Origin: Escherichia phage LM33_P1
Sequence record: NC_031937.1
Strand: one strand, 5' to 3'
DNA: 38,979 nucleotides
Within the stretch, counting starts at the first letter, position 1. Every line of letters begins with the position of its first letter. This document shows, piece by piece, positions 1-8,899 of this stretch. The position numbers and the translations under genes were made by a program. Under the pieces are notes generated by a model. It saw only the letters and a program-made list of their open reading frames with translations, did no database searches and was not told the origin of the DNA.

Positions 1-202
1 TTCAAGAACCTCAAGTCTCCCCATAGGCCCTCTTTCAGTCCAGACCAAAGGCCCTACCCGTTACTGCTCCTTGCAGTCACAGCCAGTCTATCATAAGGTT
101 GGACAGATGGTCAAGACTTAAGGTCAACGATAGGCTGAGGCTATGGCTTAGGGAAGGACGATAGGTTGGGACTATTGGTCTTCTTTGAGTCTCTATCTGT
201 AT

Positions 203-325
203 AACCATAAGTCACAACCATAGGTCACAGCCTACCTCTCACAACCATAAGTCATAACCTACAGTCTCACTAACCTACAGTCTCAACCATAAGACACCAA
301 CACCTACAGTCATAGACCTACAGTT
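203..325. repeat. Left-end array of short direct repeats (ACCATAAG x3-4 and CCTACAGT x4)
   Basis: Motifs recur at 10-40 nt spacing, read directly; position analogous to the short repeat arrays next to the terminal repeat in T7. Confidence 0.6.
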
Positions 326-435
326 AATAGACACAAGGCTATAGACTTAAGGTCTAAGACATGTTAGTCAAAGACTATATCCTCTTACACCATGGGGCCG
401 ACGATAGCTTAATCAATATTATTTCAAATTACCTA

Positions 436-470
436 TTGACTATAGGTCCAGACTATGGCCTAATAGCTTC
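436..470 (+). promoter_or_regulatory. Candidate host sigma70 early promoter (TTGACT -35, weak -10 CCTAAT/TAATAG, AT-rich upstream)
   Basis: TTGACT hexamer with 17-19 nt spacer to a -10-like hexamer; resembles T7 A1 layout. Confidence 0.35.
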
Positions 471-575
471 CGTCAACACGACACGGCAACAACCGGATAG
501 TGAAGACGCCGGTCCGGTCCGGTTAAGTAGTCAGCCTGTAAGACATACGAACAACAGGCAACCGACAGAAAGTAG

Positions 576-613
576 TTGACAGGCAGTAACGACTTAAAGT
601 AATATGTACCACA
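576..613 (+). promoter_or_regulatory. Host sigma70 early promoter (TTGACA - 18 nt - TAATAT), T7 A3-like
   Basis: Near-consensus -35 and -10 hexamers; downstream GTACCACAT..GAAAC resembles T7 A3 initiation region. Confidence 0.6.
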
Positions 614-727
614 TCGAAACAACGGTGATGACCAACACTGAATGGTCTACCTGAAGTCCTCTGACTGAAGGGAATGCTCTTTAACAATCTGGATAAACTC
701 TTAATGTGCGCCGATAGCGACTAACTA

Positions 728-775
728 CAGGGCCTTTGAGTCTACATCTGAAGGCCCTGACTGATAGTCACTAAC
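728..775 (+). promoter_or_regulatory. RNase III-type processing hairpin (CAGGGCCTT/AAGGCCCTG) plus conserved box ACTGATAGTCACTAAC
   Basis: 9-bp perfect inverted repeat followed by box that recurs at 1045-1092 and 1775-1820. Confidence 0.5.
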
Positions 776-782
776 TTAAAGG

Positions 783-1037
783 ATGGACACTATGAAACAC
801 TTAAGCACAATCACTAATCGCAATGAAGTATTCGTGAACACTAAAGGTTATGCGTGGATTCAGCTTAAAGAGATGACAGGAGCGCGTCACCGTGTGGTAG
901 TGCGCAAGGTATCAAGCAAGCAGTTCAGCAACTACAGCGTCGATACTGTGCGTATAGACAACGAGACATACCTGATAGACTCGCAGATAACCGTGAGTCC
1001 TACAGTGGGCGTCTCAGCTCCTTATTTCGCTAACTGA
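783..1037 (+). CDS. Hypothetical early protein (84 aa)
   Basis: ORF in early region, ATG preceded by AAAGGA, flanked by processing-site boxes; no recognised homolog. Confidence 0.55.
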   Translation: MDTMKHLSTITNRNEVFVNTKGYAWIQLKEMTGARHRVVVRKVSSKQFSNYSVDTVRIDNETYLIDSQITVSPTVGVSAPYFAN

Positions 1038-1044
1038 GAGTGAT

Positions 1045-1092
1045 TAACTACAGGTCGTTAGACTGATAGCGGCCTGACTGATAGTCACTAAC
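1045..1092 (+). promoter_or_regulatory. RNase III-type processing hairpin (CAGGTC/GGCCTG with G-U) plus box GACTGATAGTCACTAAC
   Basis: Second copy of conserved early intergenic box. Confidence 0.5.
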
Positions 1093-1120
1093 ACATAATT
1101 AACTTTGAGAGGATATAACT

Positions 1121-1624
1121 ATGGAACGTAATGCTAACGCATACTATGAGCTGCTGGCTGCAACCGTTGAGGCATTTATCGAGCGTATTCAGTACGACCA
1201 CCTGACTCAAGATGACGACTACAGCGCTGCGCTGCATGAGGTCGTAGACGGTCAGGTTCCACACTATTACCACGAGATTTTTACGGTGATGGCTGCTGAT
1301 GGTATAGACAACGAGTTCGAAGACTCTGGGATGATACCTGAAACCAAGGACGTAACGCGTATCCTACAAGCTCGCATCTATGAGGCACTTTATAACGACG
1401 TGTCTAATAGCTTGGATGTAGTCTGGTTTGAGGATGAAGAGGCAGACGAAGAGGATGAATATTGGGTAGTTGACGCTAAAACAGGCGCAATAATTGTGCA
1501 AGCTGTAGCTCTTGAGGTCGCTACTGCATGTGCCAAGGTCAACTATGTGATAGGTCGCCACCTTCAGGTGGAAGACATCAATGATAACGTAGTGTTTGAC
1601 CCTGCTGCTGAGGACTGCGAGTGA
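1121..1624 (+). CDS. ocr: Ocr-like anti-restriction DNA-mimic protein (T7 gene 0.3 homolog) with C-terminal extension
   Basis: Clear similarity to T7 Ocr (VPHYY..IF.VMA..GID.EFEDSG..P.TKDV.RILQARIYE); strongly acidic; RBS GAGAGG; 167 aa versus 117 aa in T7. Confidence 0.88.
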   Translation: MERNANAYYELLAATVEAFIERIQYDHLTQDDDYSAALHEVVDGQVPHYYHEIFTVMAADGIDNEFEDSGMIPETKDVTRILQARIYEALYNDVSNSLDVVWFEDEEADEEDEYWVVDAKTGAIIVQAVALEVATACAKVNYVIGRHLQVEDINDNVVFDPAAEDCE

Positions 1625-1774
1625 TGGTAACTTATGGCCTCTGCCAGCACCACGTCACTAACGCCCGGCTTATGGTCAAGACCGGGCAGTTAGACCACGA
1701 TTGGGCTATGCGTCTCTTGAAAGTGGTCTACAGGAGACGCAAGCGTATACACGACAGTTTACACGCTAAGTGAC

Positions 1775-1820
1775 AGACTACAGGTCATCAATGCTGGTGG
1801 CCTGACTGATAGTCATTAAC
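1775..1820 (+). promoter_or_regulatory. RNase III-type processing hairpin plus box GGCCTGACTGATAGTCATTAAC
   Basis: Third copy of conserved early intergenic box. Confidence 0.5.
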
Positions 1821-1836
1821 AACTGAGAGGGAAGAT

Positions 1837-2064
1837 ATGAACACAATCACTGGTGCCATAACCAAAGGTTTTCGAGCAATTTTCGGTGAAACGCAAGAAG
1901 TATGCACCAATCATAAATTCGTACTTTCTTGCGTAGCAGGTGACGAGTTTGACGGGTTCGATAAACTGGTGGTTTGCGACCATTGCGGACAAGAGGCTAT
2001 CCAACACTCAAACGGTAAATTTGAATTAATAGACGATAGCCTTACAGAAGGAGACGGCGAGTAA
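1837..2064 (+). CDS. Hypothetical early protein (75 aa) with Cys/His cluster (C..H...C...CDHC)
   Basis: ORF with RBS GAGAGGGAAG; possible small zinc-binding protein. Confidence 0.55.
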   Translation: MNTITGAITKGFRAIFGETQEVCTNHKFVLSCVAGDEFDGFDKLVVCDHCGQEAIQHSNGKFELIDDSLTEGDGE

Positions 2065-2137
2065 CCTAAATAAACAGGAGAGAACCAAATCATAGCTTGA
2101 CCATAACACTGACGTGATGGTACTGAGTGATAGACGA

Positions 2138-2166
2138 GAGGTCATCGACTGATAGGTGGCCTCAAA
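2138..2166 (+). promoter_or_regulatory. RNase III-type hairpin (GAGGTCA/TGGCCTC) with GACTGATAG loop
   Basis: Inverted repeat with G-U wobble, shares loop motif with the other early boxes. Confidence 0.4.
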
Positions 2167-2196
2167 GATTACCACTTACATTGATAGGAGTTAACT

Positions 2197-2301
2197 ATGA
2201 GCACTGCAATCATCTGGACTATCTCAGGCTTCGTAGCGTGGGGAATGTTTACTCTAGTCTGCAAACTACCGGTCCTTACTCAACTGTTATGGGGCTTATG
2301 A
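2197..2301 (+). CDS. Small hydrophobic early peptide (34 aa)
   Basis: ATG preceded by GATAGGAG; hydrophobic sequence MSTAIIWTISGFVAWGMFTLVCKLPVLTQLLWGL; below the ORF-track size cutoff. Confidence 0.35.
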   Translation: MSTAIIWTISGFVAWGMFTLVCKLPVLTQLLWGL

Positions 2302-2501
2302 CTATGAGTATCGCACTATTGATAGCCATAGGCTATGGACTTATCGCCTACGTGCTGGTGAGAGACATCAACAAAGCGCGTAAAGTCTACAAATTCAAAT
2401 ATGTACGTCTGGGTAGCTGGACTGTACGTCAACCTAACGGACGATTCATGCGTAACTTAGCGAACGTCTGGGATATAGCAACACTTGGGAGCAAACTGTA
2501 A
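2289..2501 (+). CDS. Small membrane protein (about 70 aa, one predicted TM helix)
   Basis: Internal ATG of track ORF 2127..2501; the upstream part of that ORF overlaps a hairpin site so the 2127 start is unlikely. Confidence 0.4.
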   Translation: MGLMTMSIALLIAIGYGLIAYVLVRDINKARKVYKFKYVRLGSWTVRQPNGRFMRNLANVWDIATLGSKL

Positions 2502-2827
2502 TGAACAAGTCATACGGGATTAATCTGGTACACTCTATGGACGCAGACATGCAAATGTTAAGCCTACTGGCTACCGGGTATCGTCACGGAACGTCAAGTC
2601 ACTCCGCACGTCAACAGCAGGAGCGGGACCGGGTACTGCAAGCAAGACTCCGGGCTGAGGGCCATAAGTCCGAACTAATGTGTCTGGTGTATGGTGGACG
2701 ACCAATCACTGACGATGGTAAACTTTTAGTCTCAGGCTGGAAGGCGATAGACCAACGGTCAACCATCAAGCACACGACTCATGGTGACTTCAGTCATCTC
2801 CACGCTAACCCGCTGATATGCAAGTAA
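2501..2827 (+). CDS. Hypothetical early protein (108 aa) at the position T7 gives to the 0.7 kinase
   Basis: ORF with ATG overlapping upstream stop (TAATG); no kinase motifs recognised. Confidence 0.55.
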   Translation: MNKSYGINLVHSMDADMQMLSLLATGYRHGTSSHSARQQQERDRVLQARLRAEGHKSELMCLVYGGRPITDDGKLLVSGWKAIDQRSTIKHTTHGDFSHLHANPLICK

Positions 2828-2832
2828 TTCTG

Positions 2833-2855
2833 ACTTAACTATCACTATAGGACTC
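2833..2855 (+). promoter_or_regulatory. Phage RNAP promoter variant (TTAACTATCACTATAGGAC) directly upstream of gene 1
   Basis: Matches the 11-member promoter family in this genome. Confidence 0.6.
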
Positions 2856-2924
2856 AAGGTCTAAGACTCCAAGTGAAAGACCAAAGAGACTTTAAGTGAA
2901 AGACTAATAACAAGGACTTTAAGT

Positions 2925-4892
2925 ATGAGCGTCATCTCTATTGACAAGCACGACTTCTCTGATGTGTCGAACGCCATTGAGCCGTTTAACCTACTGGCTG
3001 ACCACTACGGGCAAGACATTGCAGTCAAACAGCTTCAGCTTGAGCACGAGGCATACACTGAAGGCGAGCGACGTTTCATCAAGAACCTTGAGAGACAGAC
3101 TGAGCGAGGGGAACTGGCAGACAATCAGGTCGCCAAGCCTTTGATGCAGACTCTGGTCCCTAAGATTGCGCAAGCCGTCAAGGAGTGGCATGAAGGTCCA
3201 GACGGGAAGCTGTCAACCTCTCGTCCGAGCGTAGCGTTCACCATGTTGAGCACTGAAGAGAAGGCCGTAAAGGTCCGCTCTTTGCGCATCTCCTGCGAGT
3301 CTGCTGCGGTTATCATATTGAAGGTCATACTCTCCAAGCTGGTCAAGCCTGAAGGGATACCGATTACACCGATGGCCTCAGCGATAGGTCGCACACTTGA
3401 GGACGAAATCCGCTTCGGTCGCATCCGTGACAAGGAGAAAGAGCACTTCAAGAAGGCGATAGCTGATAACCTGAATAAGCGGGCCGGGGCGTCCTACAAG
3501 AAAGCCTACATGCAAGCGGTCGAGGCATCCATGCTGGAGCAAGGCCAACTGGAAGATGCGTGGGGGACTTGGAGTCCGACCGAGGCTGTCCACGTTGGAA
3601 TCAAGATGCTGGAGATTGTCATCCAGTCCACACAACTGGTCGAGCTTAAGCGTTACGGTGCTGGCAATGCAGCGGCTGACGTTGAGATGGTCCACCTGTC
3701 AGACTTCTGGGTCAAGAAGATGGCACAACGAGGATTCAGCCTTGCGGGTATAGCTCCAGTCTACCAGCCTTGCGTCGTTCCACCTAAGCCGTGGACTGGT
3801 GTCGTAGGCGGTGGGTACTGGGCCAAAGGACGCAGACCATTACCACTGATTCGCTTAGGGTCTAAGTCTGCGGTAGCACGCTACGAAGACGTGTATATGC
3901 CTGAAGTCTATGACGCTGTGAACATCATTCAGAATACACCTTGGAAAGTGAACAAGAAGGTTCTGGAAGTGGTGAACATGGTCGAGAAGCTGAACAACAC
4001 GCCTATTGATGACATCCCTCAGATGGAACCGCTGAAGCCTGAGGACTATGCGGGTGAGACTGAAGAAGAACTCAAGGCATGGAAGAAGGCTGCTGCTGGT
4101 ATCTATCGCCGCGAGAAGGCCAGACAGTCACGAAGATTGTCACTGAGCTTTATCGTCAACCAAGCGAACAAGTTCTCTCAGTTCAAGGCCATCTGGTTCC
4201 CGTATAACATGGACTGGCGCGGTCGCGTCTACGCTGTGCCGATGTTCAACCCTCAGGGTAACGACATGCAAAAGGGTCTTCTGACTCTGGCAGTCGGTAA
4301 GCCTATTGGTGCTGATGGTTTCAAATGGCTGAAGGTCCACGGTGCAAACTGCGCGGGTGTCGATAAAGTCACCTTCGAGGAGCGTATCAAGTGGGTGGAA
4401 GATAACCACGACAACATCATGGCTGCTGCCAAGGCACCGATGGATAGCATTGAGTGGTGGGGCAAGTTAGACTCTCCGTTCTGCTTCCTAGCGTTCTGCT
4501 TCGAGTATGCTGGCGTAATGCACCACGGCTTGTCTTACTCCTGCTCGCTGCCGATAGCGTTCGATGGGTCCTGCTCTGGGATTCAGCACTTCAGCGCTAT
4601 GCTTCGCGACCACATCGGTGGACATGCAGTAAACCTGACGCCATCCGGTAAGGTCCAAGACATCTACCGCATCGTGTCTGACCGCATTGAGGAGGAGCTT
4701 AAAGTCCTACTGGTTAACGGTACGGACAACGAGATGGTAACTCACGAGGACAAGAAAACTGGTGAGATTACCGAGCGTCTCAAGCTGGGGACACGAGAGC
4801 TTGCCCGTCAGTGGCTGACCTACGGTATGTCACGAAAGGTCACTAAGCGTTCGGTCATGACTCTGGCCTACGGGTCGAAAGAGTACGGCTGA
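2925..4892 (+). CDS. 1: T7-like single-subunit DNA-directed RNA polymerase, N-terminal 655 codons, ends at in-frame TGA
   Basis: Collinear similarity to T7 RNAP; ORF terminates ...MTLAYGSKEYG* where T7 continues ...GSKEFGFRQQ. Confidence 0.9.
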   Translation: MSVISIDKHDFSDVSNAIEPFNLLADHYGQDIAVKQLQLEHEAYTEGERRFIKNLERQTERGELADNQVAKPLMQTLVPKIAQAVKEWHEGPDGKLSTSRPSVAFTMLSTEEKAVKVRSLRISCESAAVIILKVILSKLVKPEGIPITPMASAIGRTLEDEIRFGRIRDKEKEHFKKAIADNLNKRAGASYKKAYMQAVEASMLEQGQLEDAWGTWSPTEAVHVGIKMLEIVIQSTQLVELKRYGAGNAAADVEMVHLSDFWVKKMAQRGFSLAGIAPVYQPCVVPPKPWTGVVGGGYWAKGRRPLPLIRLGSKSAVARYEDVYMPEVYDAVNIIQNTPWKVNKKVLEVVNMVEKLNNTPIDDIPQMEPLKPEDYAGETEEELKAWKKAAAGIYRREKARQSRRLSLSFIVNQANKFSQFKAIWFPYNMDWRGRVYAVPMFNPQGNDMQKGLLTLAVGKPIGADGFKWLKVHGANCAGVDKVTFEERIKWVEDNHDNIMAAAKAPMDSIEWWGKLDSPFCFLAFCFEYAGVMHHGLSYSCSLPIAFDGSCSGIQHFSAMLRDHIGGHAVNLTPSGKVQDIYRIVSDRIEEELKVLLVNGTDNEMVTHEDKKTGEITERLKLGTRELARQWLTYGMSRKVTKRSVMTLAYGSKEYG

Positions 4893-4926
4893 GGACATCG
4901 TGATGCCAGGGACATCGTGATGCCAG
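4893..4926 (+). repeat. Perfect 17-nt tandem direct repeat (GGACATCGTGATGCCAG x2) inside the RNAP gene
   Basis: Read directly; lies immediately 3' of the in-frame TGA (4890-4892). Confidence 0.9.
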
Positions 4927-5606
4927 CGATTGACTCAGGGTCTGGCGCTATGTTCACTGAACCAAGCCAAGCATCTCGCTTCATGGCTAAGATGATTTGG
5001 GAAGCTGTGAGTGTGACCGTAGTTGCTGCGGTTGACGCGATGAAATGGCTTCAGGGTGCTGCCAAGCTGCTTGCTGCTGAAGTGAAGGACAAGAAGACTG
5101 GAGAAATCCTGAAGCCTTGTCTTCCGGTACACTGGGTCACACCTGATGGTTTCCCTGTCTGGCAGGAATACCGCAAGAAGGACACCACTCGTCTGAACCT
5201 GATGTTCTTAGGGTCATTCAACCTTCAGCCTACCGTCAACAAAGGCACGAAGAAAGAGCTGGACAAGCACAAGCAGGAGTCAGGCATTAGCCCGAACTTC
5301 GTCCACTCACAAGATGGTAGCCACCTCCGCAAGACTGTAGTCCACACGCACCGCAAATATGGCGTGATGTCATTCGCAGTGATTCACGATAGCTTCGGGA
5401 CCATCCCGGCTGACGCTGAGTATCTGTTCCGTGGAGTCCGTGAGACGATGGTCGAGACCTACCGCGACAACGATGTGCTGCTTGACTTCTACGAGCAGTT
5501 TGAATACCAGCTTCACGAGAGCCAGAGAGACAAGTTGCCTGAGCTTCCGAAGAAAGGTAAACTGAATATCGAAGACATCTTGTCTTCAGACTTTGCATTC
5601 GCTTAA
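4917..5606 (+). CDS. 1: T7-like RNA polymerase, C-terminal 229 codons (same frame as N-terminal part)
   Basis: Similarity to T7 RNAP C-terminus through ...HDSFGTIPADA... to terminal FAFA; same frame as 2925..4892, separated by TGA plus 8 codons. Confidence 0.88.
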   Translation: MMPAIDSGSGAMFTEPSQASRFMAKMIWEAVSVTVVAAVDAMKWLQGAAKLLAAEVKDKKTGEILKPCLPVHWVTPDGFPVWQEYRKKDTTRLNLMFLGSFNLQPTVNKGTKKELDKHKQESGISPNFVHSQDGSHLRKTVVHTHRKYGVMSFAVIHDSFGTIPADAEYLFRGVRETMVETYRDNDVLLDFYEQFEYQLHESQRDKLPELPKKGKLNIEDILSSDFAFA

Positions 5607-8744: not shown

Positions 8745-8899
8745 CTGAGGTTGAGAAGAAATACATCGTGGAGCTTGAGGGTCGCGTTCAGTCCTTCGAG
8801 GTTCCGTTGTACGCAAAGTCTCTTGAAGAGGCTACCCTGAAGTCCCAAGAGTATGAGGACGCTGGGTTTGTGGTCGGACGGATTCGCCCTGAGACCTAA
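8741..8899 (+). CDS. 2: Gp2-like inhibitor of host RNA polymerase (52 aa)
   Basis: Similarity to T7 Gp2 (..SFEVP.YA..L.EA......Y...GF.V.R.RP); below the ORF-track cutoff. Confidence 0.7.

Follow-up and report, generated by a model that had tools for sequence, protein, structure and literature searches.

Small genes in the early region of Escherichia phage LM33_P1: a diverged gp0.4 homolog in a Kayfunavirus gene set without a gp0.7 kinase

Introduction

The T7 gene 0.7 kinase (gp0.7) is a broad anti-defence factor (PMC13645617), and T7 gp0.4 attaches to FtsZ at its synergy-loop face, a binding that is abolished by either W28L or L35P (PMC13423816). Infection by the T7 relative K1F produces filamentous cells with multiple (approximately four) Z-rings; the authors of that study stated that K1F "lacks the 0.4 genes", and the FtsZ inhibitor was not identified there, with BLAST returning no match (PMC9372555). 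Here we describe the early region of Escherichia phage LM33_P1, which the literature on phage therapy names as therapeutic against E. coli ST131. The region occupies positions 783–2,827 of the analyzed stretch (sequence record NC_031937.1, 38,979 nucleotides (nt); hereafter, the window) and holds seven small open reading frames (ORFs), which are designated as A, ocr and B–F and lie upstream of the phage RNA polymerase gene (gene 1).

A first-pass annotation, made from the sequence alone, had claimed that the region lacks a gene 0.7 kinase homolog and carries uncharacterized small ORFs without recognizable similarity, and it had regarded these ORFs as candidates for host-takeover and anti-defence functions. 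Early genes of LM33_P1 without an assigned function bear on both the safety of therapy and the host range. To follow up these claims, we examined the homology, selection, genomic context and predicted RNA processing of the region. The region turned out to be typical of its genus and free of a gp0.7 kinase, and one of its small genes, B, is a diverged homolog of T7 gp0.4.

Results

Positions 600–2950 of the window are 100% identical to the Kayfunavirus LM33P1 record OZ035813.1, and because of this match the early region analyzed here is that of an already published T7 relative of the K1F type. Approximately 13 other Escherichia and Salmonella podophages match the same segment at 97–99% identity, and 237 phage records share part of it. 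The early block runs on the plus strand, from 5' to 3', as A, ocr, B, C, D, E and F, followed by gene 1 at 2925. Its identity and synteny with K1F, EcoDS1, JSS1 and Vec13 make it highly probable that the region represents the class I (early) operon in a Kayfunavirus of the K1F type. The backbone consists of ocr (or a SAMase gene in its place), B, which is linked to ocr, E and F. Two slots are variable, one before ocr and the other between B and the D/E hairpin; in LM33_P1, A occupies the first, and C and D occupy the second. The region is a typical Kayfunavirus early operon in which all genes are already catalogued, and GenBank has contained this architecture ever since K1F and EcoDS1 were deposited. 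Mechanistically, it contains nothing new yet. Its one useful new link is the homology of B to gp0.4, which has been overlooked so far.

Gene B (1624–1773, plus strand) encodes a 49-amino-acid (aa) protein that corresponds to K1F gp0.35. The assignment of B as a gp0.4 homolog in the gp0.4 position is based on a Pfam family, a profile–profile alignment, reciprocal PHROG matches and gene position. PF26807 (Phage_T7_GP04) is present in the precomputed Pfam annotation of contigs that encode exactly the B protein; the Pfam copy that we searched directly contains no PF26807 model, and T7 gp0.4 itself was unmatched there. B matched phrog_5058 strongly and phrog_7202, the T7 gp0.4 family, weakly, and T7 gp0.4 matched phrog_5058 reciprocally. 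When eight gp0.35-type proteins were aligned with six gp0.4-type proteins by hhalign, the probability was 97.0% (E = 9.7e-11, 48 columns). B and T7 gp0.4 are 36.6% identical over 41 aa, and plain tblastn or BLAST from T7 gp0.4 does not reach Kayfunavirus. The ocr stop codon lies at 1622–1624 and the ATG of B at 1624–1626, and in T7, gene 0.3 likewise ends at the position where gene 0.4 starts (1278). The two proteins thus resemble each other in their length of approximately 50 aa, their location right after ocr with overlapping start and stop codons, a full-length profile match and the common pattern YGL...G...AM..LK..Y. The FtsZ-contact residue Leu35 of T7 gp0.4 aligns with the conserved L32 of B. 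The five residues of T7 gp0.4 that contact CapRel(Ebc) (A12, T14, L16, S19 and R23; PMC13423816) are all changed in B, R23 being conservatively replaced with Lys; B may therefore not trigger CapRel(Ebc), and it may escape sensing by this system.

The gene that precedes B, ocr (gp0.3; 1121–1624, plus strand), encodes a 167-aa DNA-mimic anti-restriction protein with a C-terminal extension (PF08684, 5.2e-28; phrog_2568, 2e-51). It is 47% identical to T7 Ocr, and PF08684 covers residues 8–94 only. The C-terminal extension of approximately 55 residues is also found in K1F (169 aa); JSS1, Vec13 and EcoDS1, in which Ocr has 110 aa, lack it.

Searches for the gp0.7 kinase, whose absence had been claimed in the first-pass annotation, bore out that claim. 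In tblastn searches against the window, T7 gp0.7 gave a best E value of 1.2, and five kinases (from T7, T3, KP32, Pisces and ST29) gave no match at E ≤ 1. A hidden Markov model built from these five kinases gave a best E value of 1.9 on the six-frame translation of the window, and the small ORFs matched neither the kinase PHROGs (phrog_2828 and phrog_15752) nor a kinase Pfam family. By these sequence searches, the gp0.7 kinase is not part of the LM33_P1 gene set, as is the case with K1F, the type phage; what the region shares with T7 gp0.7 is only the genomic neighborhood between the gp0.3–0.6 genes and gene 1. EcoDS1, JSS1 (KX689784) and Vec13 also lack gene 0.7. The absence of the kinase is common in Kayfunavirus, has been visible since the K1F record and is not peculiar to LM33_P1.

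Pisces and ST29, which belong to the same genus, carry a 244-aa kinase-only gp0.7 homolog (phrog_15752) in the variable slot together with E and F. These kinase genes (1844–2578 in Pisces and 1865–2596 in ST29) encode no shut-off domain, and they are accompanied by a SAMase replacing Ocr and by no gp0.4 homolog. The composition of these early regions suggests that alternative "kits" of early genes exist within one genus. Since E and F persist in members that have the kinase, they are not its replacement.

Two public "protein kinase" labels in relatives proved to be misannotations. The label in Vec13 (MH400309, 1610–1942) lies on the ocr gene, whose RefSeq twin is named "ocr-like anti-restriction", and that in ZH4 (OM355495, 854–1360) marks a gene of 168 aa that takes the ocr position and immediately precedes a gp0.35 homolog. 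Such labels could mislead surveys of kinases. The anti-Dnd kinase JSS1_004 was considered as a lead and dropped, as the "JSS1" record KX689784 carries E and F but no kinase. In T7, gp2 inhibits the host RNA polymerase. LM33_P1 has a gp2 homolog at 8753–8890 (47% identity), to which the shut-off of host RNA polymerase would presumably be left.

The ORFs listed in the first-pass annotation, which are of 84 aa (783–1037), 75 aa (the Cys/His protein), 34 aa, 67/70 aa (the membrane protein) and 108 aa, are all present on the plus strand; B, which overlaps the ocr stop codon, had not been itemized. Orthologs of the small ORFs differ in a way indicative of purifying selection. In pairwise Nei–Gojobori (NG86) comparisons, the ratios of nonsynonymous to synonymous substitution rates (dN/dS) ranged from 0.03 to 0.57, with 0.08–0.32 for A, 0.12–0.38 for B, 0.12–0.16 for C, 0.12–0.57 for E and 0.03–0.40 for F. 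A Shine–Dalgarno sequence precedes the start codon by 6–8 nt in A, ocr, C and D, while B, E and F start within or beside the preceding stop codon (GTGATG, ATGA and TAATG, respectively). Because of the Shine–Dalgarno sequences or start/stop coupling, the dN/dS ratios well below 1 and the hairpins that delimit the cistrons, all seven small ORFs (A, ocr and B–F) are judged to be real genes, in agreement with their earlier treatment as early genes. Apart from D, each has a PHROG, and the public phage genomes in which it is annotated number in the tens to hundreds.

The earlier statement that no similarity could be recognized proved incorrect: by the criteria above, B is homologous to T7 gp0.4, E belongs to the PHROG of T3 gene 0.6, and A and F correspond to K1F gp0.2 and gp0.38, respectively. 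The term "uncharacterized" is accurate in that no function is known for A, C, D, E or F, although all but D are already in PHROGs. Profile searches assigned two of the seven ORFs to known T7 early families, and the rest fall in named families without a known function.

Gene A (792–1037, plus strand) encodes an 81-aa protein of the K1F gp0.2 family (phrog_10124, 1e-39), a family name taken from the K1F record AM084414. Translation from the ATG at 783 would give 84 aa; the ATG at 792 is better placed. Homologs of A were found in 117 records and lie in the early regions of Kayfunavirus, Klebsiella Przondovirus and N4-like Gamaleyavirus phages, as well as in a Phapecoctavirus myophage. Przondovirus genomes have A as their first annotated early gene and also encode a full kinase. 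The AlphaFold2 (AF2) model of A is β-rich with six strands (predicted local distance difference test score (pLDDT), 68.6), and the predicted fold gave no informative structure match.

Gene C (1837–2064, plus strand; phrog_32657, 1.7e-53), which was found in 55 records, encodes a 75-aa acidic protein with four Cys and three His residues and a net charge of −9. C23, H26, C32, C47 and C50 are invariant in eight sequences of the family, giving the candidate metal-binding knuckles C23-x2-H26 and C47-x2-C50, and C probably binds zinc; no Pfam zinc finger matched it. Its closest relatives outside the genus are in 44-kb Kagunavirus siphophages (90–93% aa identity). The segment 1817–2081 and phage Golestan (siphophage locus 2980–3245) have 90.6% nucleotide identity, and the similarity is limited to C and its immediate flanks. 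The sequence comparison thus identifies C as a gene-sized cassette exchanged horizontally between a Kayfunavirus podophage and Kagunavirus siphophages. In Golestan, the C homolog opens an operon that runs divergently to the gene of a cro-like repressor.

Gene D (2197–2301, plus strand), found in approximately 20 records, encodes a 34-aa hydrophobic peptide (Kyte–Doolittle 19-residue maximum, 1.82) and has TAGGAG 7 nt before its ATG. It matched no PHROG. Neither D nor E matched T7 gp0.5 or gp0.6A by blastp at E ≤ 10, and the PHROGs differ; D is similar to T7 gp0.5 only in that both are short hydrophobic peptides encoded just after an RNase III site.

Gene E (2298–2501, plus strand) encodes a protein of 65–67 aa (67 aa from 2298; 70 aa if read from 2289) that corresponds to K1F gp0.37. 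It matched phrog_2385 (1.7e-32), which T3 gp0.6 also matches (9e-30), and blastp aligned it with T3 gp0.6 at 38% identity over 63 aa (E = 2.5e-9), the range for T3 gp0.6 and KP32 gp02 being 38–41%. E has an N-terminal transmembrane helix (hydropathy maximum of 2.35, residues 3–21), a basic tail and a net charge of +9. Like E, T3 gp0.6 and KP32 gp02 have a length of 65–67 aa, an N-terminal transmembrane helix and a basic tail with the conserved TVRxxNGRF motif, and they are likewise encoded by early genes downstream of an RNase III site. On these grounds E is classified as a member of the T3 gene 0.6 membrane-protein family. In T3 and KP32 the next gene after the relative of E is 0.65 and/or that of the gp0.7 kinase, whereas in LM33_P1 E is followed by F.

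Gene F (2501–2827, plus strand) encodes a 108-aa protein of the K1F gp0.38 family (phrog_7066, 7e-46). It is 76% identical to K1F gp0.38 (AM084414) over the conserved 86 residues, while the N-terminal 20–25 residues are different. The stop codon of D overlaps the start of E (ATGA), and that of E overlaps the start of F (TAATG). E was found in 213 records and F in 220, in every case next to each other and immediately before gene 1 (approximately 215 records). The pair also precedes gene 1 in Pisces and ST29, which have a SAMase for Ocr and the kinase-only gp0.7, and in distant metagenomic relatives it is likewise directly upstream of the RNA polymerase gene. A profile of F retrieved only 13 clusters, all of 57–122 aa, from 1.84 billion representative proteins, with no link in that set to any larger or annotated family. 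From its sequence distribution, F is a narrow, free-standing family and part of the core of the genus, with almost no occurrence outside Kayfunavirus-like phages. An AF2 model of F from a 35-sequence alignment was poor (pLDDT, 55) and was not used for a fold search.

Putative RNase III sites lie just upstream of A, ocr, C and D. The hairpin before A (718–776, −25.6 kcal/mol, z = −6.25), that before ocr (1040–1092, z = −5.25), that before C (1772–1822, z = −2.74) and that before D-E-F (2122–2180, z = −3.61), all on the plus strand, have an asymmetric internal loop between a lower and an upper stem. They can be aligned with R0.3, R0.5 and R1, the annotated T3 sites, with which they share an invariant AGGxC...GxCCT core and the fold. 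Within 2066–2300, it is the segment 2122–2180 that is common to most Kayfunavirus records. We regard the four hairpins as processing sites of the T7 group at which cleavage by RNase III is predicted, and from the genes that they immediately precede, the mRNAs [A], [ocr-B], [C] and [D-E-F] are predicted. An Rfam search of 1–3000 found no RNA family.

No RNase III-type hairpin was found before gene 1 (fold z = −0.95). Where T3 has site R1, which the literature lists for T7 too, LM33_P1 has a phage RNA polymerase promoter (2838–2860). Its core ACTATCACTATAGG (2838–2851, plus strand) has 11 matches on the plus strand of the genome versus 0.21 expected, and the EcoDS1 annotation places an equivalent "phi" promoter ahead of gene 1. 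A promoter of this type before the polymerase's own gene would permit positive autoregulation. For the host RNA polymerase, a candidate σ70-type early promoter (TTGACA-18-TAATAT; 10 of 12 consensus matches) lies at 576–605 on the plus strand. It is placed like the host RNA polymerase promoters annotated in EcoDS1; the number of σ70 consensus sites in 1–3000 is not above chance.

Gene 1 (2925–5606, plus strand), which encodes a T7-type RNA polymerase, forms the right boundary of the early block and appears in the window as two ORFs in the same frame (2925–4892 and 4917–5606). The public record has an intact 893-aa product with PF14700 and PF00940. Within 4890–4928 the window differs from OZ035813.1 at 12 of 19 bases (4891–4909), where GAGGACATCGTGATGCCAG, which duplicates the sequence just downstream, stands in place of TCGCAGACCAAGTTTACGA. 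As a result, a tandem repeat of 17 nt is present, and an in-frame TGA splits the polymerase into ORFs of 655 and 229 aa. K1F, like the public record, has an uninterrupted polymerase frame at this site. The difference appears to be artefactual or to have been introduced, and not to be biological.

Upstream of the early block, a 72-aa ORF (361–579; K1F "gp0.1", phrog_30192) overlaps the early-promoter region, and its C-terminus after residue 59 is wholly different between K1F and LM33_P1. It is probably a non-coding stretch annotated by gene callers. The left end (200–340) contains many short repeats of the CCTACAG and CCATAAG types, recalling the arrays near the genome ends of the T7 group.

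Discussion

Taken together, these features allow the following course of early infection to be proposed. The early region would be the first DNA to enter the cell, and the host RNA polymerase would read it from promoters around 430–605. RNase III would then cut the transcript at the four T3-type hairpins into [A], [ocr-B], [C] and [D-E-F, then gene 1]. B would most likely bind FtsZ and block Z-ring assembly as T7 gp0.4 does, a function that we infer from the observed homology. Given this homology and, as indirect support, the filaments with multiple Z-rings seen in K1F infection, we consider it rather likely that B/gp0.35 is the FtsZ-blocking activity reported for K1F; with gp0.35 recognized as a diverged gp0.4, the question of the FtsZ block in K1F becomes testable. 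D and E are predicted to insert into the inner membrane, E with its N-terminus out and its basic tail in the cytoplasm. E, which is translationally coupled to the putatively soluble F, would act with F against a host target located at the membrane or close to it, although we have low confidence in this joint action. A and C would be accessory genes, a class whose members usually act against host defences.

Some of the results weigh against this picture. Trp28 of T7 gp0.4 aligns with H25 of B, which is invariant in the gp0.35 family. The idea of an E–F complex comes only from translational coupling and co-occurrence and is accordingly held with low confidence. Searches of PADLOC, NCBIfam, Pfam and PDB gave no match for A, C, D, E or F and thus no link to any defence system. 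Moreover, while gene content, homologies, selection and the homology of the hairpins are observed, expression, cleavage and binding in LM33P1 are predicted from them.

Two other readings concern the coding status of the small ORFs and the nature of those next to gene 1. Chance reading frames among the small ORFs, above all D, are an improbable explanation. D is very short and has no PHROG, some gene callers skip it and call an extended E of 87 aa instead, and its frame is altered after approximately 22 codons in Enterobacter phage 02_vB_Eclo_IJM. However, D has a good Shine–Dalgarno site, and its ortholog in ZH4 retains both the 34-codon ORF and the ATGA overlap with E. The differences between the two fall at codon position 3 in 13 of 18 cases (nine synonymous and five nonsynonymous codon changes), whereas the alternative 87-aa frame has one synonymous change, 15 nonsynonymous changes and a stop in ZH4. 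For all small ORFs other than D, dN/dS is well below 1. A far less probable alternative is that E and/or F are a detached and diverged host shut-off domain of gp0.7. Their position upstream of gene 1 equals that of gp0.7, both have Arg/Lys-rich segments, and there are weak local BLAST matches to the basic region of T7 gp0.7 (E = 0.11–0.55). In hhalign comparisons with the gp0.7 family, however, the probability was 0.04% for the F family and 1.1%, over 10 columns, for the E family. The true relatives of E (T3 gp0.6 and KP32 gp02) adjoin a complete gp0.7, E and F coexist with the kinase in Pisces and ST29, and no longer protein holding F as a domain was among those found with its profile. The shut-off-domain explanation is already largely refuted, and we prefer to regard E as a member of the T3 gene 0.6 family and F as a family of its own.

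Anti-defence or host-takeover roles of A, C, D, E and F, as put forward in the first-pass annotation, are plausible from the sequence context, and the setting agrees with the proposal insofar as A and C move between unrelated phage groups, as such genes typically do. More specifically, A and/or C, and possibly F, might be new inhibitors of particular defence systems that compensate for the missing broad-spectrum kinase, a reading that we hold as a tentative possibility. A comes first on the DNA end that enters the cell and is spread among Kayfunavirus, Przondovirus, N4-like and rV5-like phages; C is small and acidic and belongs to a cassette exchanged with siphophages; and relatives without the kinase, given its breadth in T7, plausibly need alternatives. 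On the other hand, A, C and F have no similarity to a known anti-defence protein or defence component, and the proteins of the small genes are absent from the supplements of accessory-gene screens that we searched. The co-occurrence of A with a full kinase in Przondovirus shows that A is not a kinase substitute, and mobility alone is no proof of an anti-defence role. In a full-text search of the literature for peptide strings and for gp0.2, gp0.35, gp0.37 and gp0.38, no phage paper was found. A broader proposal, that the E-F pair is an undescribed early inner-membrane module for takeover or anti-defence and that A and C are single-gene defence inhibitors travelling between phage families, is somewhat less likely still. 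Nevertheless, a genus in which most examined members are kinase-less yet E and F are always kept is a natural place for kinase alternatives.

The closest described counterpart of this region is that of K1F, the early genes of which are 0.2, 0.3, 0.35, 0.36, 0.37, 0.38 and 1. Their order and families match those of A, ocr, B, E and F in LM33P1, and K1F, like LM33P1, has no gene 0.7. The protein identities are 96% between A and gp0.2, 82% between B and gp0.35, 92% between E and gp0.37, and 76% over the core between F and gp0.38. The slot that contains gp0.36, a 55-aa membrane protein, in K1F is occupied by C plus D in LM33P1. EcoDS1, in turn, shares with LM33P1 a phage promoter before gene 1.

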